A stretch of 57,637 nucleotides of DNA. It comes from Proteromonas lacertae (taxonomy: Eukaryota). The stretch is from positions 62,001-119,637 of the forward strand of contig NGBS01000006.1 in NCBI GenBank assembly GCA_002245135.1, in the 5' to 3' direction. Below are positions 12,489 to 56,496 of this stretch, piece by piece. Positions within the stretch are counted from its first letter, which is position 1, and every line of letters begins with the position of its first letter. Made by a program: the position numbers and the translations under genes. The notes below the pieces were generated by a model. The model ran no database searches. It saw nothing but the letters and a program-made list of their open reading frames with translations, and had not been told where the DNA came from.

Positions 12489-12639
12489 TTAAGATAATAA
12501 TACTTTGTTGTTTATTCATATTGTATTATTGATGATGAGTAAATATAAACAAAATAAAATAAAAATGTAAAAATGAATGTAATTGACTTGTGACATGTCA
12601 AGTCATCTCAACATAATTAAAAAATAAAAACAAATCAAA

Positions 12640-26968: not shown

Positions 26969-28712
26969 ATGAAGAAAAAAACATTATTTTATATTTCCTA
27001 TTGCCTACTCCTACTTATCATATTTATTGATATGGTAGGCACATCAATGATTGTTCCTATTTTACCTCGATACTCCAAACATTTTGGTTCATCAACATTT
27101 GAACATGGTGTTACGTTTTCATCCTATTCAATAGCTCAATTTCTTAGTTTATCGTTAATGGGTTATTTGAGCGATAAATTTGGAAGAAGACCTCTTCTGT
27201 TAGCTTCTTTATTTGGATCTACATTTGGACCAATATTCCAAGGTTTCTGTTGGAATACTTGGTCATTTATCGCCGGTAGATTCATCACAGGTGCTTTAGG
27301 AGGTAGTTCAACAATTGGATATGCGTATTTATTAATCTCAATTTTATTTTTTATATAGATGGGTAGCTGACTGTATTCCTCCCAAACAAAGACCAAAATA
27401 TCAGACTATAATGAGTGGAATGATATCTCTAGCATGGTGTATTGGTCCAGTATTTGGATCTTTACTAATCGAAGTAAGTTTATCATTTCCACTGTTTATG
27501 GCTGGAGCATTAGGAGGCATTGTATTTATATTAAGTATATTCTTCTTAAAAGAAGGATCAGAATTTGCAGAATTACTAAAAAATGAAGAAATTGAATTAG
27601 AAACACTTTCTCTTAACCAAATTAAAATTCAACAAAATGATAAAAAAAAATTATCCGTTGAATTAGATCCATTAGATCATCCAGTAAGTAGTGAAGATAG
27701 TGAAGAATTTGATGTAAATAAATTGATAGGTAAAACAGCTAGTATTCAATCACCACAATCACCATCATCTACTTCCCAGTTATTACAACAACAACAACAA
27801 CCATTAGATATTAAAACAATGGTAGATTTACCAACACCACCACCACCTGAACCAAACACAGTAATAATTAATGAAGAGGAAGTAAATGAAAGAGAAAGTC
27901 ATATATCAGTGATATCAGCAACAATAGTTGGTGCAACAGCAGTTGCTTATTCAGAAGCAGTAAGAGAAACAACAACAACTAATGATAATATAACAGTAGA
28001 TGAAACTACAAAATCATCAATTGAGAATAATAATAATAATAATAATAATAAGAACTCAAAGTTTTTGGTTGACAATTTCTACACAATATTCATATTATTG
28101 TTAATCATTTGTTTCTTATCAACTTTTCATATTAATTCTTTTGATGTTATATATCCATTAGATGCATCTGACAATTTCAATTTATCATCATTGGAATTAG
28201 GTTTTCTTTATATGGGAGTAGCTGCAATATTTGCATTATTTCAATTATATTTATTTGATAAATCCAGATATTATATGAGTATTATTAGTTTATATTATAT
28301 TTCAATTCCATCAATGAGTATATATTTATTTTTTTTTTCTTTTTTTATTTTTATAGCTATTGCCTGGATTATGTGTGCATTTGCAAAGGTTACTTGGTTG
28401 AGTATAATTGGTACTTTAATTCATGCATTTGGTGGTTCAATCTGCGCTTCTCTTCATACAGTAGTTACTTCATTACTGTGTAGACCAGAATATGGAGGAA
28501 AGTTCTTAGGTTATATGATGTCAGCTGAAGGTTTAGCGAGAATTGCAGCACCCCTTATGCTTCCTAGTATATATGATGTATGGAATCCTTTGGCATATTT
28601 AGTGACGATTGGTGTTGGGGTGATTGAGATGGTTATTATTTTTGTATTTGCATATGTCACTAGAGATGTGAAATTGTTGAGAAGAATTCGAAAGCAAGCA
28701 AAAAAGAATTAA
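26969..28712 (+). CDS. MFS transporter (TetA/DHA1-like), tandem paralogue 1
   Basis: Motif A GYLSDKFGRR, DMVGTSMIVPILP, 6+6 TM layout with long central loop; introns near 27326-27358 and 28318-28356. Confidence 0.88.
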
Positions 28713-28854
28713 ATGATTTATAATGTATGTTATATTTAGCTTATTTTATTTTAATATCTGGTTATTACATTCGTATTATGACTGACATCTATGTTTGTTA
28801 GGCATTTTACCTTACAACACAAAAATTGAACTTGAATCGACAATTTTCATTTTG

Positions 28855-30568
28855 ATGAATTGGAGGTTCATCGCATCTCTAGCAATAGTCTACGCCTCAG
28901 TTTTTATTGACGCGTTTGGTGTATCTATGATTGTACCAATATTACCAACGTTGCAAGAGTATTATCAAATGACAACTATGCAATATTCAATTACTTATGC
29001 TGCATATTGTACTGCTCAATTTTTCAGTATGATTATAATGGGTAAGCTCAGTGACATACTTGGCAGAAGAAAGTTGTTGATTACTTCACTCGTTGGTACC
29101 TCTTTAGGTATATTTCAAATATATAACATAAATACTATTTATAGGTACAATATTGCAAGGCTGTTGTTGGAGTACATGGACATTCGTTGGTGCTCGTTTT
29201 TTCACAGGCTTCATGGGTGGAAGTGCTACAGTAGGATTTGCTTATATATCTGATTGCATCCCACCAGAAAGGCGTCCAAAATATCAATCAGCAATGAGTG
29301 GAATGACTTGTATAGCATATTGCATGGGTCCAGTGTTTGGTACAATGTTAGTAGGCGTATCAGTGAAGTTGCCTTTCTTCTTAGGAGGAGCATTAGCTTC
29401 AATCATCTCTATATTTAGTTTTTGTTATGTTTTAGATGCTAAAGATTTAAAGAAGTTAGAAAAGCAAAATCAACAGGAAATAGAACTACAAACAACAAAC
29501 ACAAAAACTACAACAATTGTAAATAATAATAATAATAATAATCAACGAAATAATAATAATAATAATAGTGATGATGAAGATGATGATAATGATGATGATT
29601 TAGAAAAAATAGAAGATGAAGAAGATGACTTAGAAAAGAAAGGATTAATAACAAGAGTAGAATTACCTGCCAACAACAGAAGCAACAACAATAATAATGA
29701 TTTAACTCCCAGAATGACAGAAGAAGAATTAGATCAAAGAGAAAGTAGATTATCTCAATTAATAACTCAACATTTAGGTAATACATTTGCAGTAATTGAA
29801 TCTCATACAGTTGAAGAAGAAAAAAAGAAAAAAAGAATAAAACATGGAAAGAAAAAAGGATATTCTGTAATAAGTGAAACGGATAATTTATTGGAACTCC
29901 AAGAACAAGAAGCTGCAGTTACTCCAAGAGAAGAGAAGAAAATGAGTAAATTTATAGTTCCGAATTTTTACAAAATATTTATTCCACTTTTCTTTATCTC
30001 TGTATTGAATGGATATCATATTAATTCCTTTGATGTTTTATATCCATTGATATTAAGAGATGTTTATCATGTTAAAACATCTTATACTGGATTCTTATAT
30101 ACTTTATGTGCTGGTATATTTGCAGTAGTTCAAATATATTTATTTGATCATATTAGACATTGTTTTAGTATTATTCAGTTGTATTATATTGGAGTTTCAT
30201 TTATGATATTATCATGGGTACTTCAAGCTTTTACTAATAATGTTTGGGTTACTGTTTTTGCTGGTGCTTGGCATTCTTTTGGTGGTGCACCACCTCAAGC
30301 ACTTCAAACCATCATCACTTCATTGTTATGCAAACCTGAGTTTGGTGGTGTTTATATTGGATATATTATGGCTGCAGATGGTTTGGCTAGGATTATTTGT
30401 CCAATGTCTATACCCACCATTTATGATTTAGGAACATCTGTTCCATTTCATACAACCAATATATTAGGAGCTATTGAGATTATTTTACTTATGTACATGC
30501 ATTATCAGACTAGAAATATTCAAATGTTTAGAAGAGTTAGAAAAGAAAAGACTAATGAAAATGCATAA
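28855..30568 (+). CDS. MFS transporter (TetA/DHA1-like), tandem paralogue 2
   Basis: GKLSDILGRR, AYISDCIPPERRPKY, HINSFDVLYP shared with paralogue 1; one intron near 29108-29144. Confidence 0.88.
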
Positions 30569-32365: not shown

Positions 32366-32463
32366 AACATTTATTGATTGTATTCTATTTAATTCGATAT
32401 TTTGGGTGTTAATTTAGAGTATACCATTAATATTTCTATTTCTTATAACTGCATTTGTTTATC

Positions 32464-35400
32464 TAGGCTTGGATTCTGTTTGCCAGAAACGATCCTTTTT
32501 TCTTTATTCTAGTTTTATACTTATGGAACAACTGTTTTATCAATTAAGATCTATCAGTGACTTAATCAAGTTACAAACCATCGATATGGAGAAAATCAAA
32601 AGTACTTTATTTGTTGTTTAAATCTTCTTCAGTATTATCAAACGAAATAAGAGCAATCGAGAAGAATGAGACTCTGTCTCTATCAAATGCTGAGATTTTA
32701 CATACAATATCAATAGAGCTTTACAATTTAGTTCGAAGTGAAATGCAAAAGTGTAATACACTGAATCGAATGAACTTTCTGATTGAATGTCGAATACTAT
32801 CCTGTGAAATGTTGAATACAAGCACAAAATTCAATTCAATGAAGAGTTTAAGAAATGAAGTGATTAAAGCTTACTGTCGAAGTGGTATATCAATATTGAG
32901 AATAAACAATGTCAATATACGAGGAATATCATGCTATGAGCGAGTATTGGAGATATTAGAAGAAAATGGTGGAATTGAGAGTATAATAACTGAAAAGAAT
33001 GAAGATATGGAAATATGTTTAGAATCAATATATGAGATGTTAGTCAGTTATATCGACTATATATCACGAGAAGAAAAGAATAATAAAGACAAACTGATAA
33101 ACAATATAAAACTGATAAATACAATAATTTCCTATTTAAATGATAATAAGAATGAAGAAATATACAATTTAATGTATTTATTAATATTGTTTATTATATA
33201 TAGATTTGGAATCTTAAAAGAATATCACAAAATGAATCGATATAATGATGTGATAGAAATAGGTGAGATATTTTATTCAATGATAAGTAATAATTGTGAT
33301 GATAATAAGAATATGAAAGTATTATTGCTATTAAGTGATTGTTATATAATGAACAAAGATAAGAAAGCATTAAACTGTTTATATTTGTGTGAATATGAAA
33401 AATATGGAATTGGTATATATTTGATGATAAAATATATATGTTTTACTAAAACTATATCATTTTTATATATTTTTATTTATATTTTCTTTAATTTATATTA
33501 TTTTTACAAAACCGATGAAATAGTGAAATTAATGGAAATGTTATTGAATCATAATAGTAAAGAATATTCATTATGTTTAGATGCTTGTCATATGATATTA
33601 AATAATAATATAATATCTAAAGACAATAATGAATTATATTGGTATAATGAATTAAAAGAACATTTTATTGATCATTGTGTTGATATTAATTTAGAAATAT
33701 TGGAAATACTTTTATCTAAAAATCCAATTCCATTAGATGTAATGGAAATATTGAATGAATTTAAATCAAGTATTTTTATATCTATATATTGTTTATTGAT
33801 TATTATTAAATAGATATTAATTCATTATCAGAATGTCAATTATCTTCAATATATAATCTATTATACAACACTTGTATATTGTATTATGAAAATAAACAAT
33901 ATAATGAATCAATAAATGTATATATATATATAAATAAATATATAAATATATAATAGTGGTGTAATGAGTTATTGCATTTATTGAATAATAATAATAACAG
34001 TTATATTCCCTCCATATTAAGAATGTTATCTGATTGTTACAATGAAACACATAATGTGAATGAAGCCATTAATAAAGCCAAAGAATGTATAAAGATAGAC
34101 AATACAATCAAAGTATAATGATTATTATATAATATAAATAGTCTCATTTCTTATTATATCATATATATATAAACAATAATATTGATAGAATAAATATAAA
34201 TGAAATGAAAGAATGTTTGAACAATTTAATGAATGCAAAAGATTATGATGTAAAATATTTATATTTATGTTGTGAAGAAGCCATTAAAAATAATAATATA
34301 TCAATCTCCATAGAATCCTTAGAAAGACTGTTATATTTACATAATAATATAAAGATTGGTCCAATACTTCGATGTTTAATAGAATTATATAATAATAACC
34401 ATATAAATGATGATAATAAGATATTACAATACTTTTCAAATGGATTAATGAAATTAGATAATATAAAAATAAAGAAAGAAGAAGAAGAAGAATATAATGA
34501 AAAGATAGAGAATGAGATAAAATCAATATTTGGAAATATGGAAGAGATTAATTGGATAGTTGGAATATTATGGAATAAAGGGTTATTATTGAAAGAAAAA
34601 GAGAATTATAAAATGAGTCATAAATACTTGAAATTATGTTATGAATATAGTTGTTATTTACCTCCTTCAAATATACTATTATCCTTAAAGAAATCTTCCT
34701 TATTATTATCCTCAAGCCTATTATTTGAGACAATAAATAAGAACGAAGAAAAGAAAGAAGAAGAAGAAGAAGAATATAAAGAAGTATTAAGAGAAATTGA
34801 AATATGTAAAAGATTATGTTTGAAATTAAAGAAACACTTTGAGAATAATAAAAATGATAATTTGATAGTATTTGGTAGAAAAGAGAATATTTGCACAATA
34901 AATGAGAATATGTTAATATTAAATACAATCGAAATGGAATGTAATTTATATTTACATAATAATGATAATATTGAAGAGTTATTCAATGAATATATTGAAT
35001 CAAGTACAATAATAATAAACCCAGAAATATTAGAATATATCTCTGAAATAGCTAAAAATACCAATTCCAAACCAATAATATATAAAGTATATAAATATAT
35101 ATTATTATACATATTATTATTATTATTATTATTATTATATAGAAATGCTTATCGTTATGTTTACAATATTTATATCAACAGAATCCAATAGATATAAAGT
35201 GTTTAAGTAGAATCTTAAGAAAATTATTATTACAAAGTGAAAACAAAGAAGAATTATACAAATGGCTTGAAGAAATCAATCAAATATGTGAAAATATAAA
35301 AGATGATGATTTTGATAATAGTGATTATGATTTTTATACGAGTATTAGTTGGAACAATGGAATAAAATATTTGAGATTAAAAGAGATAGAAAAGAGTGAG

Positions 35401-36014
35401 AAATTATTGAGTTTATCATTGAAATTCTTAGTAAAATCTAAAGGACTACAAGTATATATTGTAATGTATATATATCGTATAGGCTTACAGTAATGAAATG
35501 AATGAGATCTACAGTAGAGTTCTAAGTGAAAGAGAAGATTGTTGTTTACAACAACTGACTGAGATATGAATGATAATTAAAATCCTTATTATTGATATAT
35601 TGATATAGATATTGTTTTGTTTTTTGTTGTTATTTATTTCCATAAGAGAAAGAAGAGAGATTGTTGTTGATTAAAGAAAGAAGATGGATAAAATATTTCA
35701 GAATATCATATTTCAGTTGCAGATAAGAGTGAAATGTTCATTTTTGAGTTTTAGTTGTTTTTAATGAAATTCTTTCTTTGAATGAAACGACTATAATAAC
35801 GAAAAACTCAGTTTTGTTTTTTAGGATTTTTAGAATGAAATTCTCAATTCTGTGTATGATTTGTATGATATGATGAATAGTCCTTGTGCTGATCTGTAGT
35901 ATTGTTGGTGTTAGTGAAGCAGGCAGACACTTCTTCACGAATGGAAGCATTTCTGAAAGAAAGAATAGTTCAAGAAGATTAAGTGATGTCGAATTAACAA
36001 AAATATCATTTGGA
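32464..36014 (+). repeat. Left arm of a near-identical ~3.55 kb inverted duplication
   Basis: Reverse complement of 45385-48933. Paired ORF coordinates sum to 81397 or 81399, and the translations are identical except for isolated residues. Confidence 0.95.
32523..35569 (+). CDS. TEX11: TPR protein, ZIP4/SPO22/TEX11-like (meiotic crossover factor), copy 1, multi-exon
   Basis: ATG 32523, 31-nt intron 32602-32632; helical repeats; EINWIVGILWNKG and C-terminal SISWNNGIKYLRLKEIEKSEKLLSLSLKF resemble the TEX11/ZIP4 W..AWNxG repeats. Confidence 0.6.
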
Positions 36015-39000
36015 ACTAGTACTGATGGATATTATAATATAAAAGCCAGTTATTTATGTTCTTATGATAATATAGGTATAATCGACAGAACTAACTGTAA
36101 ATTTTGTAAATTTGTATATACATATAAAGGAACATATGATAGAACTAATCAAGAATATAAATTCAGTGATATTGTTCTTGATGAAGAAAAATCGTTATTC
36201 TATTTAGATTCTTCTATCGTAGCTGATTTACCGGAAAAAGAATACAAATACAGTGAACTGAAAACATCTACTGCAGCTGTACAATATGTGGAGAGTAAAA
36301 AATTACCTTTACCAGATTATGTTCATATACCCAGTGGAGAATTGATGTTGGAAGGAGACATTCGTGCACCATATTTTCAGACTTGTATATTATATCTAAA
36401 TTATGAATATAACAATTATAGTGAATAATGAAGATGTGATGTATAGAATAGAAAATAGTCATTACAAAACATATAATGCAAAAATGGATAAAATGTATGG
36501 TTATAGAAAAGATACAAGACAATATTATGAGAGATATGGTTTAGACAATAACATAACAATAATTGAAGTTCATGCAATGAACATGGAAAGAACAATATTA
36601 TATGTTGCAAATAAGAATGAGTATGTCGATATGATTGAGGAATTTAAAATAGTTCAAAATGGTGATGAAGTAGAATCTGAAAGTGGATCACCTTTATATT
36701 GTTATACAGAAGAATGTGATTATGTTAGTTCACTAGTTGATGGTTGGGTTCAGTTCTATATTCGTACAACTTTGTCATTTAAAACAATGCCAAAAGAAGA
36801 TGTAAGAAAAAACATTGATGCAGATATGAAAGCTATAAGAAAAGAGATTAGAAATTATTATAGAAGTAAAATTAGTAATACAAGAGAATTGAATAATTAT
36901 GAAAGAGATTTAGCTGATGATATTGGTTATTATTATGAAGAAAAAGGTGAAAGTAATGATATTTATAACGCATATATAATATATACAAATCAACTTACAA
37001 TATCAACGTATGAAATAGATGGTAGAGATAATGCAAATAATTCAATAAAAGGTATAATAAAAACCAAATATACAATTCCTGATAATAAGATTATAAATCC
37101 TCAGAATGATTATGATTCCACTTCTACTGCTGAATTAGCAGATTATGAGAGTTGTAAAACACCAACTCTTTTATCGTATATATGTATATTATATTAAATT
37201 TTAGTAATGTTGAATCAGTATGTGGAGTAGATGCACAAAGTACTACTAATAGTTATATATATTCACTTCCTATTACTATTCAAATATTGGAAAATAGTAT
37301 GATATTTACTGATGGTAGTAATACAAAAGAAGTAGAATTAAAAGAGAAGAGTATAAATATATGTTTATATAAATAGATGCAGATGATCTTAGAATGATAT
37401 TTGAGAAATTTTCAGTGAATACAATTCCAATACCATCTGAAAAATGTTATAATGGTAATATTATTGATATAAAACATAGTTTGGATATTAATATTACTTC
37501 AATAGATAATGAGTTATACTCATTTGTTAAAGCATTTGAAGATGGAAGTTATGGTTTTGGTATATCAACATCATCTATTTCTAGCAAAGATAAATATTCA
37601 GTATCTGAATCTAGGTATTTTAAATTCGATTATTATTCATTAACTACAGAGGATTTAAGCATTATTAATAAGGGCTATTCATATTTTACTTTCTACCATT
37701 CTCTTGTAGATGGTTTAGTTGATCTAATAGATTGTAAAAGTAATAATGATATTCAAATTCAAAAAGCATTAAATAATTACAATGAAAATGCATATTATAT
37801 TGATAGAATATTTAATAAGCAATTACCAGGAGGAAGTGATAATCCAAATGATGATGATGATAATAATGGTAATGATGATAATAATGATGATAAAACAACC
37901 ACAATAACAACCACAAAATTATTTATTCCTCCTCCAGTGTTACTATCATGTAAATTGAGTGATGAAGGATATATATTGATAATAGAATTTGATAAGAAAT
38001 GTTTAATGAATGGAATAGAAGTAAATAGTATATTTACTTGGAGTGATCCTCCATTTATAACATTTGATTCTTCAACAAGAATTGATATATTATTCTACAA
38101 ATGGATAAATGATGAAACACTATATGCTTATTATAATTCTACAACTGAAAGTATATCAGATTCTCCAAAAATGACACTTACAGAAGGATATATATATTCT
38201 GATTTAGATAGTATTTATTCAGCTAATGGTAGTTTAGCAATTACAACCAGACCTAAAGTTCCTAAAATATTGAATGGTGAATTTATTGATGAAAATATAA
38301 TTGAAATTAATTTTGACATAGAAATCAAAGAAGGAATTAGTATAAGTGGAAGAAAATGTAATGAAATTTTTAGTGATGAAACATTTGGTCCTTCATCAAT
38401 GTGTTATTTATCATCATCGTTGAAAACAATAACAATGAAAATGTCCAATCCAATTACAATATTTCCAAATAATAATTTGACATTAATTCCAAATATACTA
38501 AAAAGCAGTAAAAAGCATATGGAAGGAAGTAAAGGAACTATAAATCTGTCATTATCAGAATCATTTGAAACAGAATTAGAAGCAATAATCTCAATTCCTT
38601 CAATTGTTTCATATTGTTATGATTTTATAATGGATGGAAGTAGAAGTAGAGGTTCAAGTAGACCATTGATCTATCACTGGAGTTCTTCAAATGAAACATT
38701 AAATAATACAATATCCTCTTTAAATGAAGCAATGATAATAATTCCAAAATATTTATTAGAAGGTGGACATTATTATGATGTAAAATTAGAAATCGAAAGT
38801 TCATTTGATCATAGCAATGAATCAAGTAATATAACATTTTTTGTTGATTCAAATTTTGTATTAAATGTGAATATAGAAGGAGATAATAATCATTCAATAT
38901 ATACAAGTCAAAGTGAATATATTCGTGGAAGAGTCTCAGTATATCAATGTAACAAAAGTATTGAAATTCCATCAATTGAATATGATTGGTCATTAAAACA

Positions 39001-42000
39001 TGAGAGTAATAAATCAGAAATTGATATATCAAAATATAAAACCGATGATAAAACCAGATTATATTTTGATTCTCGTTCAATTCCATATGGTGATTATATT
39101 CTTACTTTGAATTCATCAGTTGATGAATTAGAATCCAATTATTCAATAGAACTGAATGTGGAATTACCTTCATTAGAAATTTTAACATCATATCCTGCTT
39201 ATTTAAGTCAAAATCAAAATGAAAGTATATATATTGATTTATCCAATATGAATGATCCAGATAATGTAGATATTGAGTTTACTTATACATGGAATTGTAT
39301 ATTTAATAAGAGTGAAGATGATTATGATGAATTAGTTTCAAATTCAAATCCAAATTCAGAATCAGATTTAGATACTAAAATATTTAAAATACCAAGTAAT
39401 AAATTAAAAATAGGGATTTATGAAATAACAGTTGAAATAAATGGAACAGAAACAGAAAGATCAGTTTCCAAAACATTTATAAGAGATATAAAAGAAATAC
39501 CATTTTCATTATATATTCAAAATCCAAAATCCAATTTAAGTATCTATAATCCTAAAGATATGTTTCAACTAATAAGTATAAGTTCAATCACTGAAAATGA
39601 TAAAATAGAATATAATTGGAGTTATTCAAATGATGAAAATATAAATCCATTTATAGGTAAAAGAGATTATAATAAAGTGAATATAAGATGTGAGAATTTA
39701 AATCCATTAATTACTCATAAAATCAAATTAGAAGTAACATATAAAGGTAATACAGTGGAAAGTTATTATGAATTTAGAATAAATGAAGGTCCATTATTTG
39801 GTTATTTATCTGTTTCAACATTGAACTATCAATTTGGTAATTATATTTCAATAACAACAAGTGGTTGGAAAGGAGAAGAACCATTTAGTTATAGATTTGG
39901 TGTGATAGTAAATAACTCAACTTATTATTTACAAGCAGTATATGGAAGAGGTAACAACTATTATGGAATATTACCATTAGGATCTAATCAATATAATTAT
40001 AGTTTAAATCCAATAGTGTTTATAAAAGATCGATATGGTGTAATATGTAATACAAGTTTTGATAAAGAAGGAAATATAATCGAAATTTATTCTCCACCAA
40101 TGCAATTAGATGATTTATCAAAAATAACTAGCGAATTAAAGAATGTAAGTGATGATTTGAAGAATGAACAATATTTCGATTATATATATTCAATGATAGA
40201 AGGAATTTCATCTCAGATGAAAGAAAGAAATTGTTCAGAAGATATAGGATGTCAAAATGGAGCTGAATGTTTAAATGGTCATTGTCAATGTTTGAATGGA
40301 TTTTATGGTGAATTATGTGAAAATCGAATGCCAATAGATGGTGGATTAAGTGTTAATTATAGTTATGGTGAATGTGATCATAAATGTGGATATGGTTTAA
40401 AACCGAAATGGAAAGAATGTAATAATCCTAAACCTGAATATGGTGGAAAAGAATGTAAAATTGAGATAGAATATGAAATATGTATTGGTGAAGATAAATT
40501 AGAATGTGAAAATGAAAATGGAGGTTGGAGTAAATGGAGTGAATTAAGTGAATGTAATGCTTATTGTGACAATTATAATGGTAAAACAGTATATGGAATT
40601 CAAAGTAGAAATCGAAACTGCTCAGATCCCAAACCATCCGGAAATGGAGCAAATTGTATTGGTGATGAGAATGAAATAATACAATGTTCCAAAGTATGTG
40701 AATCAGTGAATAAACTATGTCCAGGTGAATATATCTCAATGAATGGAACAAAAATTGGTAATGCTTGTAGTAATCATGGAAGTTGTATTATAAGTCGAGA
40801 AGGATGTAAAGAATATGAACCAAATTGTCATAGTAAATGTAAATGTCTTGAAGGTTATGCTGGTGAAAAATGTGAATATAGTAAAAATGAATATGAAATT
40901 CGATTAGATTTAAACAAAGATTTATTAGAAGAGATAGTTGAATCTTCATCTAAAAATGTATTGACAAATGATGCAAGTGAACAACATTCTTCAGCCTTAT
41001 TATCAGTGATAAATCCTCCAACTCAATTATTATCAGAAAATAAATCATTTTCAATGTCAATAATCAAATCTTCAATCAATTCATTAAAAGAGAATTCTTC
41101 ATTTGAAATATCTTATGAATCAATGACAAATTATATAAAAGCGAGTTGTTTATTATTGAATGATGAATGGAAAGATCGAGATGAAAGTAATTCTAGATTG
41201 CTTGAATCATCATCTTCATCTTCATTAATTTCAACAAAGATAGGAGAAGAATTACCTGAATTATTTAAGAATATAAGTAAGATGCATTTGAACCAAGAAA
41301 AATCAATAATTCCATTAGAAGTAATAACTGATGTAGTTAGTTTAAAGTCAATAAAATATGATGGAAGTATCAATTTAAATGATATGGGAGATTCTGTTAA
41401 TTTTCCTAATTCGATATTAAATGTTGATAGTGGAGAAGAAGCAAAAGAAATTTCAATAATTGATTGGTTAGATAATCCAAATAGTGATGATTTTGAATCA
41501 AGTAATAGAAGTGCAGGAGTAATCTCAATCTCAATAATGGGTAAAGAAGAAGAAACAGAAAAGAAATTTAATGATGTGGAAAATGTAATATATTTCATTC
41601 AAAGAATAAATGATGATAGTGATTTAAGACATATTCAATGTAGTTATTATAATAATAATGGTGAACTATCTTCGAAAGGATTAATAGTGATGGGAATAAG
41701 AAATGATGTAAATGGAAGTAAATTTGTGATATGTGGTACAACTCATTTAAGTGATTTTTCAACTCGAAAGAAATCTATATTACCCAAAATGAATTTAGTA
41801 AATCCAATCAGTGATGCGAAATTATTAGGTAATTATAATAAAGATAATATGATAGTTCCAATAATACTAGGAAGTGTAATATTAATCTGTATAATGTGTT
41901 GGCTTCTAACAAAATTCAAAGATTTAAATGAAATAACTAAATTAGAAGAATATAAGAGTGATTATTTTAAACTAACAGGAAGATTAGATGAAGAAGAAAC

Positions 42001-43396
42001 TGAATTTATAAAAAGTGAAAAGAACCACAAATCAATAATGGACAAATATTGGCATGTATTGAAAGATGAGCATAGCTGGTTATCTCCTCAATTAGGTCCA
42101 ACAGAGAATCTAATAGTAGTAAATCGAAATCAAAGAGTGTTATGTTTAACAGCTCAAATATTAACATCAACAGCAGTAAGTGCTTTATTCTTTGGAAATG
42201 ATGCTGAAAATATATCTCAATTAGCAATGACTTCGATAATATCTTCTTTATGTATGTTACCTGCTTCTTTATTAATTCCATATGTATATAAATATGCGAA
42301 TGGTTATATATCTAAGAAAGCATCAAGAAAGACAATTCCAACATGGAAATTGATATATTTGAAGTTGAAAAGATCAATAAAAGAAATGAAGAAAAAGAAA
42401 AATCTACCCAATAATGGTAATGAAAAATATCAATTGATATTGATAGTAGTTTCAATAATATTTGATATAGTGAGTGCTTTGTTCTTCATAATATTTGTAG
42501 CAATATTACCAGCTGGTTATATAACATTAGTTTTATTTTGTATTTATATAATATTTATAATTGAGACAATATCAATAATAATCGTATTAAATGAGAAGAA
42601 GAATAGATTATATATAATAATGATAACAGTGAATATAATATTATTATTATGCTTTTTGATATTATTTATATTGTATATCCTCTATATGAGTGATTCTTCA
42701 GCAGCATATTCGATATGGAAAAGTAGTTATAATGGATCATTAAAAGATTTAAATGAATATATCGAAAATAGTTTAGAATGTTGTGGTTATAATGAAATAG
42801 ATGATTATAATACAACTGATTGTACATCTCCCAAGATAATGGCATTAGGTGAACATACAGGATGTAAATCTTTATTAGTTGATAAATTCAACGAATATGC
42901 AGCACTTTGGTTAATATATTTTATGATAAGTATATCGATGATAGTTATTAAAATATATTTAATATCTAAATTCGTAAAAATAAAACGAAACAAAATCAAT
43001 CCAGATTCATTAACATTTGATAATATAACAACTGCAACTTGTAAGTCTGAGGAAATAATTTCAAGAGATTGTATTGTTGCAACTGAGAAATTAATATGTT
43101 TTTTGAGATATCGAATCTTTAAAGTTCAATACAAAAGAAAAGTTGAATATTTACACTGGAAAAGACAAAGAAGAATAAGAGCTGGATTGATATTATTAGC
43201 TAACTCATTTGTATTTTTATATATTCTAATAATGGTTTATATAAATTTATTATATGGAGTAAAATTTAGTAGTGATCAAGCTACAGAATGGATAATAAGT
43301 TCAACAATCTCAATGATAATCGATGTAATAATTCAAGAACCTTCAATGATACTATTATCAACAGTAGTAACAACTACATTAGGATCAATATTCTAG
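35835..43396 (+). CDS. Polycystin-1-like / adhesion-type receptor: signal peptide, variable N-domain, REJ, EGF, 2x TSP1, EGF, GPS, multi-TM region with nested tetraspanin-like module
   Basis: Splicing the 27-nt intron 35854-35880 gives signal peptide MKFSILFLVLICSIVGVSEA. REJ motifs MDGSRS..LIYHW and DPD..FTYTWNC; TSP1 GGWSKWSELSEC..RNRNCSDPKP; GPS CGTTHLSDF; PKD-like EHSWLS, RNQRVLCL and LYGVKF..EW. Confidence 0.85.
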
Positions 43397-43589: not shown

Positions 43590-45564
43590 TTAATTGATAG
43601 TTGATAATCTATATATCATTAAATTGTTTTCTATTAACGTTTCTATAAATGTATGATAATTTATTAATAACGAATATTCAACAACAAATATAAAGTTATT
43701 AACTAGTTTACCTTCTGCAATTGCTTTATTGTCATTTTTAAGCTCTTCTGTTGTTGCAAATACATAAACAGCATCTCCTACAGCCTTATATTGTTTTACT
43801 TCAGATATTGTTTCATACTCAACTAATGATATCTCTGAATTGGAATAAACATATATCATTCCACCACCAAATATCAATTTACTAGATACATAACTTCTAT
43901 CTCTTATTATGGTTATATTAGTTTCTTCCACTCCATCTCCAGAAAAACTAAAATCATAATTCAAACATTTGTCAGAAGGGATTGGAATTGTATTGAAGGT
44001 AGATTTTTCAATTATCATTCTTAGATCATTTATATCTATTAAAATAAACATAAATTTATACTCTTCTCTTTTAATTCTACTTCTTTTGAATAATCTGAAA
44101 TAGTAATTCTTAAACTCTTTTCCAATACTTCAATCCTGGTTGGAATACTATCCAACATTCTATTTATCTGCTGTACTGCATTTGATCCACATTTTAATTC
44201 AACATCTCTATTTATAAATATAATATTCAAATATACGATAAAAGTGTTGGTGTTTTACAATTCTCATAGTAATTAAATTCAATAGTTGAAGAAGGTTCAT
44301 AATCATTCTGAGGATTTATAATCTTATTCTCTGGTATTGTATATTTACATTTTAATAAATATTTTTCACTTCTACTCATAGAATTATATGTTAAAATTGA
44401 TAATATATTTGAATCTAATATGTAACTATGAAAATAATCACTATCATCGCCATCTTCATAATAATATCCAACATCATTAGTTAAATCTCTTTCATAATTA
44501 TTCAATTCTCTTGTATTACTAATTTTACTTCTATAATAATTTCTAATCTCTTTTCTAATAGCTTTCATATCTGAATCAATGTTTTTTCTTACATCTTCTT
44601 TTGCCATAGGTCTAAATGATCCTAATATGCTTGTATAGAAATCAGCCCAACCTTCTTCTTCATTATACATACCAACATAGTCACATTCTTCAGTATAACA
44701 ATATATTACACTACCTCTTGTATCTTTTATTTCATCACCATTTTGAATTTTTTCTATGACAGAGATACCATCGATGAATATATTTTCATCAGCTATATAA
44801 GTGATCGCTCTAAAATAATCCATTGCATTTACAACTATTACAGTAATATTATTATATATCCCTAATCCATCGAAATATTTCATAGATTCTTTACTATAAC
44901 CATACATTTTATCCATTTTTGCATTATATGTTTTGTAATGACTGTTTTCTATTCTATACATCACATCTTCATTGCTTACTATAATTATATATATATATAT
45001 ATATATACGACTGTAAGAGTCTCTATATTTATTATCACTATCATCAAAAAAATATGACATATATGAATCTATTTCAACTTTTGTTATATATGGTGATTTT
45101 TTACTCTCCACATATTGTACAGCTTCTGCACATCCTTTCAATTCACTGTATTTGTATTCTTTCTCTGGTAAATCGCAGTAGATAGATCCATCTAAATAGA
45201 ATATAGATTTTTCTTCATCTACAACATAATCACTAAAACTGTAGGTTTTAGTTGTTTTATCATATGTTCCTTTATATGTATATACAAATTTACAGAATTT
45301 ACAGTTATCTCTATCAATAATGGCCAAATTTTCATAAGAACATAAATAACCAACTTTTGCATTATTTCCAAACATAGATATAGCTCCAAACGATATTTTT
45401 GTTAATTCGACATCACTTAATCTTCTTGAAATATTCTTTCTTTCAGAAATGCTTCCATTCGTGAAGAAGTGTCTGCCTGCTTCACTAACACCAACAATAC
45501 TACAGATCAGCACAAGGACTATTCATCATATCATACAAATCATACACAGAATTGAGAATTTCAT
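43590..45564 (-). CDS. Truncated, probably secreted paralogue of the receptor N-terminal domain (no REJ/GPS/TM body)
   Basis: Same first exon and signal peptide, same intron positions and patchy identity to 35835-37450; stops at 43590 with no membrane anchor. Confidence 0.75.
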
Positions 45565-48500
45565 TCTAAAAATCCTAAAAAACAAAACTGAGTTTTTCGT
45601 TATTATAGTCGTTTCATTCAAAGAAAGAATTTCATTAAAAACAACTAAAACTCAAAAATGAACATTTCACTCTTATCTGCAACTGAAATATGATATTCTG
45701 AAATATTTTATCCATCTTCTTTCTTTAATCAACAACAATCTCTCTTCTTTCTCTTATGGAAATAAATAACAACAAAAAACAAAACAATATCTATATCAAT
45801 ATATCAATAATAAGGATTTTAATTATCATTCATATCTCAGTCAGTTGTTGTAAACAACAATCTTCTCTTTCACTTAGAACTCTACTGTAGATCTCATTCA
45901 TTTCATTACTGTAAGCCTATACGATATATATACATTACAATATATACTTGTAGTCCTTTAGATTTTACTAAGAATTTCAATGATAAACTCAATAATTTCT
46001 CACTCTTTTCTATCTCTTTTAATCTCAAATATTTTATTCCATTGTTCCAACTAATACTCGTATAAAAATCATAATCACTATTATCAAAATCATCATCTTT
46101 TATATTTTCACATATTTGATTGATTTCTTCAAGCCATTTGTATAATTCTTCTTTGTTTTCACTTTGTAATAATAATTTTCTTAAGATTCTACTTAAACAC
46201 TTTATATCTATTGGATTCTGTTGATATAAATATTGTAAACATAACGATAAGCATTTCTATATAATAATAATAATAATAATAATAATATGTATAATAATAT
46301 ATATTTATATACTTTATATATTATTGGTTTGGAATTGGTATTTTTAGCTATTTCAGAGATATATTCTAATATTTCTGGGTTTATTATTATTGTACTTGAT
46401 TCAATATATTCATTGAATAACTCTTCAATATTATCATTATTATGTAAATATAAATTACATTCCATTTCGATTGTATTTAATATTAACATATTCTCATTTA
46501 TTGTGCAAATATTCTCTTTTCTACCAAATACTATCAAATTATCATTTTTATTATTCTCAAAGTGTTTCTTTAATTTCAAACATAATCTTTTACATATTTC
46601 AATTTCTCTTAATACTTCTTTATATTCTTCTTCTTCTTCTTCTTTCTTTTCTTCGTTCTTATTTATTGTCTCAAATAATAGGCTTGAGGATAATAATAAG
46701 GAAGATTTCTTTAAGGATAATAGTATATTTGAAGGAGGTAAATAACAACTATATTCATAACATAATTTCAAGTATTTATGACTCATTTTATAATTCTCTT
46801 TTTCTTTCAATAATAACCCTTTATTCCATAATATTCCAACTATCCAATTAATCTCTTCCATATTTCCAAATATTGATTTTATCTCATTCTCTATTTTTTC
46901 ATTATATTCTTCTTCTTCTTCTTTCTTTATTTTTATATTATCTAATTTCATTAATCCATTTGAAAAGTATTGTAATATCTTATTATCATCATTTATATGG
47001 TTATTATTATATAATTCTATTAAACATCGAAGTATTGGACCAATCTTTATATTATTATGTAAATATAACAGTCTTTCTAAGGATTCTATGGAGATTGATA
47101 TATTATTATTTTTAATGGCTTCTTCACAACATAAATATAAATATTTTACATCATAATCTTTTGCATTCATTAAATTGTTCAAACATTCTTTCATTTCATT
47201 TATATTTATTCTATCAATATTATTGTTTATATATATATGATATAATAAGAAATGAGACTATTTATATTATATAATAATCATTATACTTTGATTGTATTGT
47301 CTATCTTTATACATTCTTTGGCTTTATTAATGGCTTCATTCACATTATGTGTTTCATTGTAACAATCAGATAACATTCTTAATATGGAGGGAATATAACT
47401 GTTATTATTATTATTCAATAAATGCAATAACTCATTACACCACTATTATATATTTATATATTTATTTATATATATATACATTTATTGATTCATTATATTG
47501 TTTATTTTCATAATACAATATACAAGTGTTGTATAATAGATTATATATTGAAGATAATTGACATTCTGATAATGAATTAATATCTATTTAATAATAATCA
47601 ATAAACAATATATAGATATAAAAATACTTGATTTAAATTCATTCAATATTTCCATTACATCTAATGGAATTGGATTTTTAGATAAAAGTATTTCCAATAT
47701 TTCTAAATTAATATCAACACAATGATCAATAAAATGTTCTTTTAATTCATTATACCAATATAATTCATTATTGTCTTTAGATATTATATTATTATTTAAT
47801 ATCATATGACAAGCATCTAAACATAATGAATATTCTTTACTATTATGATTCAATAACATTTCCATTAATTTCACTATTTCATCGGTTTTGTAAAAATAAT
47901 ATAAATTAAAGAAAATATAAATAAAAATATATAAAAATGATATAGTTTTAGTAAAACATATATATTTTATCATCAAATATATACCAATTCCATATTTTTC
48001 ATATTCACACAAATATAAACAGTTTAATGCTTTCTTATCTTTGTTCATTATATAACAATCACTTAATAGCAATAATACTTTCATATTCTTATTATCATCA
48101 CAATTATTACTTATCATTGAATAAAATATCTCACCTATTTCTATCACATCATTATATAGATTCATTTTGTGATATTCTTTTAAGATTCCAAATCTATATA
48201 TAATAAACAATATTAATAAATACATTAAATTGTATATTTCTTCATTCTTATTATCATTTAAATAGGAAATTATTGTATTTATCAGTTTTATATTGTTTAT
48301 CAGTTTGTCTTTATTATTCTTTTCTTCTCGTGATATATAGTCGATATAACTGACTAACATCTCATATATTGATTCTAAACATATTTCCATATCTTCATTC
48401 TTTTCAGTTATTATACTCTCAATTCCACCATTTTCTTCTAATATCTCCAATACTCGCTCATAGCATGATATTCCTCGTATATTGACATTGTTTATTCTCA

Positions 48501-48933
48501 ATATTGATATACCACTTCGACAGTAAGCTTTAATCACTTCATTTCTTAAACTCTTCATTGAATTGAATTTTGTGCTTGTATTCAACATTTCACAGGATAG
48601 TATTCGACATTCAATCAGAAAGTTCATTCGATTCAGTGTATTACACTTTTGCATTTCACTTCGAACTAAATTGTAAAGCTCTATTGATATTGTATGTAAA
48701 ATCTCAGCATTTGATAGAGACAGAGTCTCATTCTTCTCGATTGCTCTTATTTCGTTTGATAATACTGAAGAAGATTTAAACAACAAATAAAGTACTTTTG
48801 ATTTTCTCCATATCGATGGTTTGTAACTTGATTAAGTCACTGATAGATCTTAATTGATAAAACAGTTGTTCCATAAGTATAAAACTAGAATAAAGAAAAA
48901 AGGATCGTTTCTGGCAAACAGAATCCAAGCCTA
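45385..48933 (-). repeat. Right arm of the inverted duplication
   Basis: Reverse complement of 32464-36014. Confidence 0.95.
45830..48874 (-). CDS. TEX11: ZIP4/SPO22/TEX11-like TPR protein, copy 2
   Basis: Mirror of 32523-35569; one visible amino-acid change (KMNRYN to KMNLYN). Confidence 0.6.
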
Positions 48934-49008
48934 AATACCTTAAAAACGTGAATATATTCATCATCAATACATAACATAATAATATATATTAAGGGCTACA
49001 GACCCAAA

Positions 49009-50107: not shown

Positions 50108-50189
50108 ATTTCAATTAGCAAATCATATTAATACATTTGGAGTTATTTTATTGGGTATATTTATATCTTTCTCGTTTTTATAGGTTCTA

Positions 50190-53100
50190 ATGTATCCCAG
50201 CTATCCTCCTTGGTTTAATCCGTGGTATTACCAGTCTCCAAGTACTTCTATGCCTATTCAAGGCAATAGTCAAGCAAATCAGATTCCAATGTTGCCACAA
50301 AGTTATTTTAATCCCTGGATGAACCCTTATTTTACTCCAGCTATCCCACCACCACCACCATCCTATTACTATCCTCCACCATATTATGTAGGATCATTAA
50401 ATCAACATCCACAACAACCTCAGCAGCAGCAGCAACAACAACAACAACAATCAAACACTACTAGAAGTACTAATGGAACTAGTTTCATAACACCAAGAAG
50501 AAGAACAACATCTTCAATTGTAATTGATCAACCACCTCCTCCACCTCCAAAAATACAGCGATTAGCAGAAATCCCAGATGATTTATTGCCAGATACACCT
50601 CCTCCTGAAGATCCACCAACACTTTCACCAATTAATGATGGACCAATTCCTGAAATACATCCTCAATCAACTACAGATGTTGAAAGAAGAAGGCAGCTAC
50701 AGGAAGAAATGATTGCTCTGGATGTTGTTGATAATCATCCAGAGCAGTTGAAAACAATGTCACATCCTGAAAGAGTAAGTTTGTTACAACTTGTAGAGAG
50801 AAGCAGTAGAGACTACGAACGTACCTACGAGAAGATTATAAATGAAGAAGATGGAAAGAAACCTGAGGATTTGTTTACCCAAATCTGCAATGCATCAAGT
50901 GATTTTATGGTTACCATACGTAACTACATAAATGAGAAGAAATTTTCTTATATAAAAGTGTATTTCAGATTCAGAGTAGGTTATATAGGATCCGATGAAC
51001 CAGCCAATGCACAAGTAAGTTGTTACAAAACATTCGAAACAGCGCCAGAAATTATAACTTCTCAAGAGTTAGGTACAATTGGTTCAAAGTTAAACAATGC
51101 CATGATTCGAGATTTAGGTTCAATTTTCAACACTGAAAGATCTGAACTAAAGTTCAGATATATTAAGAAGGTAGAGATGATACTGATGAAAAGTTCAATG
51201 GCTGCTGGATCCTCTACAGAAGATGACAACATAAAGTTACCAGCAAGTCTCAACAATAGAAAGTGCGTTATTAATTTAGTAAGATATAGTGAAGAATGTA
51301 AGAATATGTGCTTTTTATTTAGTGTGGCAGCTGGTTTACACTATATAGAGTTCAAAGACCACCGTAACAGAGCAATGAAATATAAACAGTATGTAGACTT
51401 AATGGATGTAAGTAGTTTAAGGTTTCCAGTAGATGCAATTAATGATAGTGACAGAATTGATGAGTTTGAACAGCTGAATCATATTACTATCAATATATTT
51501 ACAATAGACCAGAATGAACCAATACCTTTATACGTTACCAACATAGATAAAAGAAAACACTGGCCTCATGTGAACCTATTGATATATAAAGATCATTATA
51601 TGGTAATAACAAAGTTAGAAGCCTTCCTATCACCTTCTGGTAAAAGGTGTCATAATTATTATACCAGATGCCAGTATTGTTTCTGTACTTTATCAACAGC
51701 TGATATGATAATTCAACATCAGAAAGAGAACTGTCAATTACAAAAAGGAATCATTCGTCAATTTCCACCTCCAGATACCTTCATCAAGTTTCATAATTTC
51801 AAATACCAACAAATGATTCCTGTAGTATTATACTGGGATACAGAAGTTATACAAGTACCAATAGATCCTTCTGAAGTAATACCTGGAGCCAAAGGAGCGT
51901 TTAAAAAACATATTCTCAGCAGTTGGTGCATTCACTTAAGTTCCAGGTACCCTGAAATCATCAGCGAAGAAACATTCTTCGGAAAACTGGAATTGCAGCA
52001 AGATCCACAAGATTTGGAGATGCAACTAGTAAAGAAGTTTGTTGAGATTCAAGATTATGTATTGAAGAAGTATGAAGATTATAAAAGTGGTGAATTGAAA
52101 CCATTAGATGAAAGCACTTATATTCCAGCTCATAAAAATATCGATAAATGTATGTGGTGCAATACACCCTTCAATGAAAACGACAGAAATAGAAGGCGAA
52201 CAAGACACCATGACCATTTTACTGGTAAGTATATTGCAACCTTATGTTCAAACTGTAATTGGCATTGTAGTTTACAACATATGCCTATACCATGTTTGGC
52301 ACACAACAGTAAAAACTATGACAATAACTTTATAATACGCGGATTATCAAAGTTGGATAAAGAAATGGAAGCAAAATGGTACAATGATAATAATATTCCT
52401 ATTCCAAATGATGATGATGATGATGATGAAGATAATGAAATTATACAATTACCAATACCTGAACCTGAACCTGAACCAATTGCTGATAGATTAGCTGAAT
52501 ACAATAGAGGTATTGAAGAAGAAAAGAAACAAGAACAAGAAGCAAAAACAGTTGATAATGATGAAGAAGATGCAGAAACAGAAGAAGATACTGATTCTGA
52601 TTTGCCATTACCAGAAATACCACCAAATGCAATTGAAATAGTTGATGAGAATGATCCAGCAAATGAAGAAGCATTTAATGAGTTGTATTACATGTTACAT
52701 AGTAGAGATCATTACATATCACCAAGAACAGCAGAAGATATTGGATTAGAAGAAGAGATGGGAAATATTATTGTTTCACAACCTAATTCAACAACAACTG
52801 AACAACAACAACAACAACAACCAACACCAAGAAAGAAGAAATATCATTCAAAACTATCTGTATTGTTAAAAACTGATAATAAGTTTTTACTTATCAAGTT
52901 CATGAAGTTACACTTTATAGATAGTTGTCAATTTATGCCAGCATCATTAGATTCATTAGTAAAGTCATTGAAAGTCGAAGCTGATGCACATGCTAATCAT
53001 AAAGTACTCTTTAAACCAGTTTATCAATATGTAACACAAACAAAAGAGATAAATGATTGTTTAAAAGAGAGAAACTGGACAGTGGATGATTTTATAGCTA

Positions 53101-55077
53101 AGTGGGGTTTACAGAAAGGTCATTTCCCCTACGAATACGTAGATAGTATTCAAAAGTTATACCTTACTGATAAATTACCTAGAAAAGAAGATTTTAAGTC
53201 TCAATTAAAACAGAATGAAGGTATATCTGATTATGATTATGAATCATCTCAAGCTCTCTGGACTCTATTGAAATGTAAAAACTTGATGGATTACAATATG
53301 TTCTATTTAGCAATTGATGTTCTTACATTATCTAGTGTATTTGATCACTTTAGGAATGTTGTATTTAGAACGTTTACATTAGATCCATGCTGGCATGTAT
53401 CATGTCCTGGATTAGCCTGGAGTATATTCCTTAAAAAATCCAAAGTGGATATAGAACTAATATCAGATCAAGACAAGTATGACTTTATGAGAAAAGGTCT
53501 TATTGGTGGAATTTCAATGATTGGATCTACGAGAAAAGCAGAAGCTAAAAATCATTACATGGATCCTCCATACTTTTCAGATCATACTTCTCATCCACCA
53601 AAACAAGAAACATATATTATGTATGTAGATTATAATTCTCTATATCCTTCTACAATGGCATCAATGAAATTACCCTATAAAGACTTTCAATGGGAACCAA
53701 ATCCTCAATTAATTTATGATAATGTTATAACAAAATTAAAACCTTATGAGGATTTAAAAAGATCATTTATGGTAGAAGATCAGAAGCTGTGGAAGGATCC
53801 AGAGAGCAGAGGTTATATATTAGAAGTTGATATAGAACCTCCAGATAATACAAATGGCAAGTTCTCAGAGTATCCTTTGTTTCCTGAACGAAAGATAATA
53901 TTATATGAAGATTTGTCACCAACACAGAAGCAATGGGCCAGAGAATTAGGATTAGTAGCTGTCAACAAAAAGTCTGGCAAAGAAGTATTGAAGAATAATA
54001 CAGCAAGAATAATATGTGATTTATCCAACAAGTATCATTATGTTGTTCATTATCAATATCTAAACTATGCTGTGAAGTTAGGATATAAAGTAACCAAAGT
54101 ATGGAGAGTAATTAGTTTTTGTGAAACAGATTATGCGTATGAATTTGTTATGCAATGCCATCTATTAAGAAAAGATGCAAAGAAGTTCCATCGAGATGCA
54201 GAAGCTGATACGTTTAAACTAATCCTGAATAGTGCATATGGTAAGACATGTGAGAATACTGAGAATAGATGTAGAAGTAGACTAGTTAATAATGAGGACC
54301 AATTCCTCAAATGTGTTAGCAATCCATACTTTACTGGTTTTGTTTCAATTGATGGTTGTGACTTGAGAGTGTGTAAGTTTAAAAAATACAAGTGTGCAAT
54401 AGATAAGCCAAGCTATATTGGAATGTCCATTCTTTGCCAATCAAAGTATCTTATGGCAAAGTTTTGGTATGGACAATTATATCAAAAGTATAAACAAGGA
54501 TTGCGTTTATTAATGACAGATACAGACTCTTTTATCTTTATGGTATGGACAGATGATATATACAAAGATATTGCTAATGATTTAAGTCTACAAGGTTGCA
54601 TGGATACTGGTAATATTAATTGTGATTATCTTAAAGAGAGAGGTATTCGTTATCAGAACTATCAAAGAACAGGTGAACTGAATTTACTTAAAATGGAAGA
54701 GAACAAAAGTGATCAATTATATACAATAACAAAATTCTGTGGATTGAAAGCAAAGATGTATGCTTATGAGAAGCAAAGAGTGGATGGATTTACGCATTTA
54801 AAGGTGTCTGATAGCAGAGCAAAAGGCGTAACTAAAGGTTTCAGAATAAAGACTTGTGACTATGATTACTACAAGAATATCTTAGAAAGTAAAGAACTAA
54901 GTAAAGTTTATGTTAATCAATATAGTTTCAGAAGTGCAAAACAAGTAGTATACACAGTTAAACAACCAAAGTTAGCTTTTACAATCTTTGATATAAAGAG
55001 ATTTTACTTGAATGTTTTAACTTCAATTCCTTATACTATAAGTCGCCCACCACCACCAATGTTTACAGATATTGTCG

Positions 55078-55113
<36 letters not shown>

Positions 55114-55145
55114 TTATTAATATTGATGAAAATAGCATTAATTAG
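50190..55145 (+). CDS. Protein-primed family B DNA polymerase (pPolB) with putative terminal protein, vOTU-like and HNH/Endonuclease VII domains
   Basis: ExoI WDTE, ExoII HNSKNYD, ExoIII YLAIDV; Pol A YVDYNSLYP, B KLILNSAYGK, C TDTDS, KAKMY, AKGV; HNH CMWC..HHDHFTGKYIATLCSNCN. Confidence 0.95.
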
Positions 55146-55204
55146 AATAAAATGGATATATTCAATATATTTGTGTATGCTTTTACTTTTGTGTTTTTCT
55201 TCTT

Positions 55205-56496
55205 ATGCTTACTAATTCTTATTATAATCAGCCTTACACTAAGTCAAATACAAATGCAACTCAAGAACTACCACCAGGATATAAGTTTGTTGATCAAACA
55301 AACCAATCAAACCTTACGAGCAATTTTAACAATGCACCACCGCCATTACAGAATTTTACAAGAGCGGATCCGTATGATGATGATGAAATGTCAAGACAAA
55401 TCGAGCAGTATAGAGAATATTTAGATAGACTTTATGAACAGTATTATTATTTAAGTGAAAAACAGTTTATTAAATTAACTCAAGAAGCTATTGGAAAGAA
55501 TGAAGTTCCACCTCCTTATGATGTTGTTAGAGAGTATCTTAGACGTAAACCAGGTCGTCAAGTAGTTGATTTCAAGTACAATAAAGATTTACCTTTTGCA
55601 ACTGTTAAGAAACCAGGCTATTTTCAATTAGATATTGTCTTTTTCTTACCTCAATTATATCATTTATATATAATAGAAATAAACTCTAGAAAAGTATGGG
55701 TGATACCAATGTCAAGCAATAATGCTGTAGATATAATGAGAGCTTTTAATGCATGGTATTTTAAAACAAATGAAGATGGTTCTGAAATAGTATCAAAAAG
55801 ACGTGTTGTAAGTATTTTAGCTGATTTAGAAAGTGGTTTTAGTGTAGTTAAAGAGTTCTGTGATAAGGAAGGAATAACATTCTATCAAAAGCACCTAATG
55901 AACATAGAATAGAAGCTATATTAGATAAATCGGTAAGTGTAATAAAGAAACTATTATATAAACACTTGATAGACTTAGGAATAGAAGCACCAGAGTTTCA
56001 AGCTAATATTGATCGACGGGACAGAAGAGAAATCATCGATCAAAAGTGGTTAGCACGTTTCAATGATATTGTACAACAAGCTGTGAATGACTATAACAAC
56101 AAACCATTATCAAGTTTGAGAGATTTTACACCTAATGAAGTATACAATAGTCCTAAACTACAAAACAGAATGTTAATGGAATCAATCAAATACAATTTTA
56201 ATAATGAACAAAGATTAAAAGTTCATTTTCAAGTAGGAGATTTAGTTCGATTTAAAGAGAGAAGAAGACCTATGGATAAAAACACTTATTGGTCAGATAA
56301 GATATATCGTATTATAAAGAAGAACAGATACTCTTATATGTTAGGAGATACAAATGGAAATTGGGATGAAGATGTGTCTCGATATAGGTTTAAGCACTAT
56401 GAACTTCAATTAGTAGCTAGAAGGGATCCTGAAACAAATTTCAGACATATTTTGGAAAGACCTCGAATCAGAAAAGGTGATAATACAATTGTGTAA
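55205..56496 (+). CDS. Retroviral-like (rve) integrase with C-terminal SH3-like domain, split by a -1 frameshift at ~55890
   Basis: FQLDIVF..YIIEINSRKVWV, ILADLESGF; in the -1 frame APNEHRIEAILDKSVSVIKK continues into ORF 55966 (YNNKPLSSLRDFTPNE; FQVGDLVRF..WSDKIYRI). Confidence 0.88.

Follow-up and report, generated by a model that had tools for sequence, protein, structure and literature searches.

In polycystins, a PLAT domain sits between membrane helices TM1 and TM2, and, to our knowledge, the role of the first five helices of polycystin-1 (PC1) is poorly understood. Tetraspanins are stand-alone small proteins with short tails that have been treated as free membrane organisers; they are palmitoylated, contain a cholesterol pocket and form microdomains, and a CCG motif is characteristic of their large outer loop (EC2). 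Their small outer loop (EC1) is described as 13-31 aa long, and their large outer loop as 69-132 aa with constant helices and a Cys scaffold (PMC2650405). PKD1-like polycystins are described as possessing a TOP domain and a six-helix channel unit, with 11 helices in total (PMC9672506). GPR56, a receptor with a GAIN domain, binds CD81 and CD9 (PMC13197933); GAIN domains have also been reported in ciliates and Dictyostelium.

We analysed a stretch of 57,637 nucleotides from Proteromonas lacertae (contig NGBS01000006.1, positions 62,001 to 119,637; referred to as the window), which is AT-rich eukaryotic DNA with a GC content of 19-34% and zero N. The original prediction placed a receptor and a tetraspanin-like module in one 2000-aa ORF, and the ORF is indeed uninterrupted from its ATG start at 37394 to 43396 (plus strand, as are all receptor features below; its product is referred to as P0001). 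In our GT-AG dynamic-programming gene model, however, the ORF is the last exon only (37394..43396) of a longer predicted gene (35835..43396), with four introns of 26-37 nt (35854-35880, 36385-36421, 37176-37204, and 37351-37376). The predicted protein has ~2480 aa, similar to the 2520 aa of its relative P0003, and a hydrophobic, signal-peptide-like N-terminus.

A 5-kb inverted duplication lies on either side of the receptor gene (32460-37448 and 43964-48937), with ~100% identity over 32500-36000 (3.5 kb) and only 61-81% over the receptor N-terminal exons; it is either a recent conversion or an assembly effect. On the minus strand of the right-hand copy (~45560-43590) is an apparent short paralogue of the N-terminal part of the receptor, lacking REJ and membrane helices, which is possibly a secreted form. 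The duplication also carries a helical-repeat gene in two copies (32566-35191 and 46208-48831) that has a weak Pfam match to Arm_4, has no match in PDB, and is, we presume, reminiscent of TEX11/ZIP4. Elsewhere in the window, ORFs with EGF/teneurin-like repeats (12628-16637) probably represent one more adhesion-type surface protein, and two tandem MFS transporter ORFs (27336-30568) have a 97-nt stretch in common at 75%. A 1653-aa ORF (50184-56496) encodes a protein-primed-type DNA polymerase B (PF03175, E 3.4e-17), after which comes a low-scoring integrase-core match (E 0.12), and we take it to resemble a Polinton-type element.

The last 600 aa of P0001 were modelled with AlphaFold2 (33-row alignment, mean pLDDT 80, pTM 0.61), and a second model covered 328 aa (pTM 0.54). 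By hydropathy and AlphaFold2 there are nine membrane helices: three precede the module, 3+1 belong to it, and two follow. In VIA superposition, human PKD1 (3063-3620) aligns with model residues 68-598 over 209 residues (Z 19.3, rmsd 3.2), so that the flanking helices, which had been called PKD-type from their sequence, match PKD1 TM1-5. TM1 (41852-41914), TM2 (42137-42196), and TM3 (42224-42289) were assigned from hydropathy, the model, and superposition, and TM4 (43181-43252) and TM5 (43289-43363) from superposition and topology. Tetraspanins superpose on model residues 273-471, a gap within the PKD1-aligned range (VIA). Since PKD1 aligns around this gap and the tetraspanins inside it, the insert interrupts the five-helix core in the loop that joins TM3 to TM4. 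No Pfam match to PLAT was found between TM1 and TM2 of P0001, where there is instead a helical inner loop of 74 aa (within 41852..42289). The TOP domain and the six-helix channel are absent from P0001, with the stop codon ~10 aa past TM5, and the C-terminal tails measure 8-130 aa in all 22 tetraspanin-bearing members of the family. The host core corresponds to no more than the first, five-helix half of a polycystin and lacks both PLAT and the channel.

The tetraspanin-like module (42431..42964) was recognised by Pfam, hydropathy, the model, and profile and structure matches. Hydropathy and the model recover the originally described order of three membrane segments, a CCG loop with four Cys, and a fourth segment: T1 (42431-42505, ~aa 1680-1704), T2 (42521-42592, ~aa 1710-1733), T3 (42611-42688, ~aa 1740-1765), an EC2-like large outer loop of 70 aa (42689-42898), and T4 (42899-42964, ~aa 1836-1857). 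The loop contains W1775, the CCG motif (1796-1798; 42779-42787), exactly four Cys (1796, 1797, 1810, and 1824), and two sequons (1780 and 1806), and EC1 is ~4-5 aa long. The Pfam Tetraspanin profile (PF00335), which had been suggested as a check, matches aa 1682-1856 over model positions 4-222 of 225 with an E-value of 4.7e-6, though its score of 26.9 bits is under the gathering cut-off of 32.1; no other Pfam family matches the module segment at E<=1. In the 33-row alignment, whose mean column identity is 10%, the W, the CCG, and the last Cys are near-invariant columns, and the match is therefore above chance; the CCG scaffold is invariant across a 22-row alignment.

As a single sequence, the module gave 0 matches against PDB. 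A family profile made from 22 receptor sequences, and free of known tetraspanins, was searched against 177,635 PDB sequences, and its top matches were CD53 (1.3e-13), Tspan15 (3.9e-10), Tspan7 (2e-9), CD9 (5.6e-8), and CD81 (4.2e-7). The profile also matched EC2-only constructs of Sm-TSP-2 (1.2e-4) and CD9 (4.6e-3); since these have no membrane helices, the signal exceeds hydrophobicity alone. In the Atlas search, the module alone retrieved tetraspanin clusters at 0.85-0.86, which is a lead only, and the 600-aa part gave no usable match. Identity of P0001 to six near relatives is 31-46% in EC2, 15-38% in T1-T3, and 16-34% in REJ. Of 32 members examined, 30 could be parsed, and in 25 of these the EC2 contains four Cys. 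Judged by conservation at least equal to that of T1-T3 and REJ, EC2 is under selection.

In the model, the module has 3+1 helices with a short inner loop, and EC2 has helices before and after the CCG. Foldseek ranked CD53, Tspan15, and CD9 top with both models (probability near 1, E 0.0025-0.3), with no match at E <0.001 for either. A wide VIA search with the 328-aa model placed tetraspanins at Z 9.4-12.2, no higher than unrelated helical bundles, and at rmsd 5.6-7.6, and among the best 50 rows they alone align 173-196 residues. CD20/MS4A, connexin, synaptophysin, and TTYH were rejected as candidates, with only partial bundle matches of 116-144 residues and no Pfam match. By the Pfam and profile matches and the VIA superposition of PKD1 around the insert, the proposal of a whole tetraspanin-like module nested in the membrane region of the receptor stands. 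We class the module as a domain derived from tetraspanins and embedded in a larger protein, rather than as a free member of the family; its packing against the core is of low confidence in both models (pTM 0.61 and 0.54).

The number of helices that the insert adds to an inner loop is even, which leaves the core topology unchanged. Near the membrane, K+R counts are 5, 10, 3, and 12 in the inside loops and 3, 0, 0, 3, and 1 in the outside loops. By alternation from the signal peptide and the positive-inside rule, EC2 is predicted to face outward beside the GAIN domain, with both ends of the module inside; the CCG loop is thus predicted to lie outside, as the original prediction supposed, and not in the cytoplasm.

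The ectodomain of P0001 begins with a REJ/PKD-repeat region (38561..40093, ~aa 390-900) that was recognised through P0003: no Pfam REJ match was found in P0001 itself, which in this region is 33% identical to P0003 over 476 columns, and P0003 matches Pfam REJ with an E-value of 4.9e-20. It is followed by an EGF-like module and two thrombospondin type-1 repeats (40223..40693, aa 944-1100), where the Pfam matches EB, TSP1_spondin, and TSP_1 are all below their cut-offs and a search of PDB found thrombospondin-1 (E 7.5e-10). Further downstream is a likely GAIN domain (40901..41803, ~aa 1170-1470) with a GPS motif read from the sequence, including an H-L-S triad at 41744-41752. Pfam GPS has no match in P0001 and does match in relatives, and the triad is intact in 16 of the 20 tetraspanin-bearing members with a GPS match. 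The P0001 chain is predicted to cleave itself at the GPS site. The length of the ectodomain and its N-terminal content vary widely across the family.

On the cytoplasmic side, the linker between T4 and TM4 is 54-84 aa long in 27 of 32 rows and is modelled as a single long helix continuing into TM4, and the linker between TM3 and T1 ranges from 37 to 656 aa (full-length rows). Within the former, the family alignment places an IQ-type helix (43076..43138), with the IQ core [ILVFM]Qxx[FYWHV]R in 18 of 31 aligned members; the core is absent from P0001 and its near clade, and the helix is degenerate in P0001. These features bear on a possible role of the module as a signal transducer, in which EC2 would replace the missing TOP domain as the dock for the stalk freed by GPS cleavage, and T4 and the IQ helix would relay the change to the core and calmodulin. 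In PC1, the TOP domain has been proposed as the target of the stalk (PMC9672506); this domain is absent from the present receptor family, and the mostly intact GPS triad, the fixed T4-TM4 spacing, and the IQ motif of the family would suit such a relay. However, insert-free relatives keep the GPS triad, and two of them (P0044 and P0079) have a Pfam IQ match, so that they work without EC2; with the degenerate IQ of P0001 also against it, we consider a transducer role unlikely.

A word search found one relative cluster, P0003, with 45% identity over 600 aa and an identical insert arrangement. The full HMMER search gave 225 proteins at E<=0.001 (150 among the matches listed), and 152 non-redundant proteins were examined after 16 duplicates and isoforms had been excluded. 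Among the matches listed, both flanks are present in order in 61 of the 152; of these, 22 have at least three helices and a CCG in the gap, 23 have no insert, 15 have 3-6 helices but no CCG loop, and one is ambiguous. The search for further such architectures, as originally suggested, thus found the same nesting in 21 other proteins, and the polycystin-tetraspanin fusion represents an entire family rather than a single case. In a Pfam scan of 54 chosen homologues, PF00335 matched 18, of which nine reached or exceeded the cut-off, whereas the insert-free (0/7) and loop-less (0/14) homologues gave no match; it also had no match at E<=0.01 in the four nearest full-length relatives (P0003, P0009, P0013, and P0014). 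A homologue search with A2, covering 4411-5000 aa only, gave no match, and one with A3 matched P0017 only, both being weak evidence either way. In viral contigs, none of 164 pattern matches was confirmed.

This distribution also decides whether the fusion is an assembly artefact or two genes read as one. The 5' end of the gene does lie within the 5-kb inverted duplication, ~100% identical over 3.5 kb, but the module is encoded within a single exon, is flanked by the two halves of a single fold, and lies 5 kb from the duplication, and the GC and GC3 of the insert match those of its flanks. Because independent homologues share the identical nesting (the 21 other proteins, some of them from transcriptomes), this explanation is refuted, and we find it barely credible.

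The carriers that could be named, among 20 proteins looked up, are Cantina marsupialis (with two paralogues), Bicosoecida sp. CB-2014, and Platysulcus tardus; the full-length members of Cantina and Bicosoecida derive from transcripts. The loop-less form occurs in the brown alga Scytosiphon promiscuus, and the cryptophyte Rhodomonas salina is represented in an insert-free cluster. Platysulcus is reported to branch outside Bigyra and Gyrista (PMC11412368), and because a carrier branches outside both, the fusion is probably as old as the stramenopiles, a dating drawn from four named carriers only. A quick unrooted tree, built from 262 columns of the core without the insert and unable to tell gain from loss, has a branch with an SH-aLRT of 99 between 24 rows without the CCG module and 37 rows holding all 22 carriers. 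The carrier label changes five times on this tree vs 18.2 times in shuffles. A single clade of the 22 carriers is neither rejected by the AU test (LG+G4 quick, p 0.20) nor demonstrated.

Other inserts in the core loops were observed as well. Four helices without a large loop are found at the tetraspanin position in P0021, P0025, P0026, P0029, P0036, P0100, P0104, and P0110, with the brown-algal member included among such proteins. P0077 has a RhoGAP domain in a core loop, P0142 has a PDZ domain after the tetraspanin, and P0044 has PLAT between TM3 and TM4, not after TM1. It may be that the TM3-TM4 loop accepts insertions in general.

We hypothesize that the built-in tetraspanin is an in-cis partner of a self-cleaving adhesion or sensing receptor, serving its folding, delivery, and clustering; of the functions considered, this explains the analysis best, and we regard the case for and against it as evenly balanced. 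The variable ectodomain would bind a surface or another cell, and the module would help the large receptor to fold and reach the cell surface, where EC2 and the helix bundle may cluster it in tetraspanin-type membrane patches, in line with the microdomain targeting suggested in the original prediction. Such a cis role would parallel that of free CD81 or Tspan15 toward their partners, and human PC1 is reported to co-localise with TSPAN4 (PMC10487028). The fixed-length T4-TM4 helix, which in most members has a calmodulin-type IQ site, could allow calcium to tune the coupling; in P0001, calcium control through this helix would probably be lost. A counterpoint to the cis-partner role is the existence of 23 homologues without the insert and 15 without EC2, and the family can therefore do without the module.

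The latter homologues would also suit a bundle-only role, in which the four helices alone matter as a membrane scaffold or lipid-binding unit and EC2 is a tolerated relic shed by several lineages: 15 of the 61 homologues have retained 3-6 helices but no loop, and an eroded CCG-like remnant is seen in three. Yet hhalign links the loop-less inserts to tetraspanin with a probability of about 1% or less in 4/4 groups, and EC2 is conserved as much as or more than T1-T3 in the P0001 clade; we regard this role as quite improbable. Alternatively, the module might chiefly serve to sort the receptor into vesicles, either extracellular, as the original prediction proposed, or flagellar, or into migrasome-like bodies, given that PC1 co-localises with TSPAN4 on migrasomes (PMC10487028) and that polycystins are ciliary vesicle cargo (PMC11968823). 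We find this highly doubtful, as the worm tetraspanin TSP-6 is described as not being cargo of the polycystin vesicles (PMC11968823), and the vesicles of the stramenopile Blastocystis ST7 are described as being without tetraspanins (PMC9648668).

Taken more broadly than the in-cis partner role, the family may represent an ancient class of stramenopile receptors that predates the Platysulcus split, namely a polycystin-tetraspanin chimera of nine helices that cleaves itself. Here the tetraspanin would take the place of the channel half, organising the receptor or signalling for it, and a helix that binds calmodulin would connect it to the core. We offer this tentatively, a little short of an even chance. 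If it is true, the pairing of a GAIN receptor with a tetraspanin, which in animals involves separate chains, would have been hard-wired independently in protists. A natural tetraspanin fixed on a PC1-type core, together with sisters lacking the module or the loop, is a ready comparison for function, both for the contribution of a tetraspanin to a GAIN receptor and for how the five-helix core works without a channel. Further, annotation misses embedded tetraspanin domains: the bicosoecid carrier is named only 'PKD/REJ-like domain-containing protein'. A full-text literature search, with most subscription papers outside its scope, found no polycystin-tetraspanin fusion, and the architecture is real, conserved, and apparently undescribed in the literature searched.

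Among known systems, PKD1, PKD1-like, and PKDREJ (PDB 8zku and 9l0m) share with P0001 a REJ-type ectodomain, the H-L-S GPS triad, the stalk, and the TM1-5 fold. Unlike them, P0001 lacks PLAT, TOP, and the six-helix channel, has almost no C-tail, and contains EGF and TSP1 repeats before the GAIN domain and a tetraspanin-like domain in the TM3-TM4 loop. The four-cysteine tetraspanins CD53, CD9, and CD81 have the same 3+1 helices, 70-aa EC2, and CC-C-C pattern, whereas the module of P0001 is embedded, has a very short EC1, and its bundle is 5-8 A rmsd from solved ones. Two stramenopile proteins were compared by description. Ectocarpus Esi0130_0068 is a male-gamete-specific REJ and GPS membrane protein with 6-7 predicted helices, and its paper mentions no tetraspanin (PMC4700764). 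A non-canonical tetraspanin-like protein (bioRxiv 10.1101/2024.02.19.579948) has eight helices vs nine in P0001, and its main text mentions neither REJ nor polycystin, although the supplement may bear on novelty. A large-ectodomain protein together with a tetraspanin, as in P0001, is known from GPR56/ADGRG1 with CD81 or CD9 (PMC13197933), ADAM10 with Tspan15 (8esv), and CD19 with CD81 (7jic). GPR56 is also a GAIN receptor, but in all these pairs the partners are separate, exchangeable chains, whereas in P0001 the tetraspanin is covalently joined to a core of polycystin type, not a seven-TM one.
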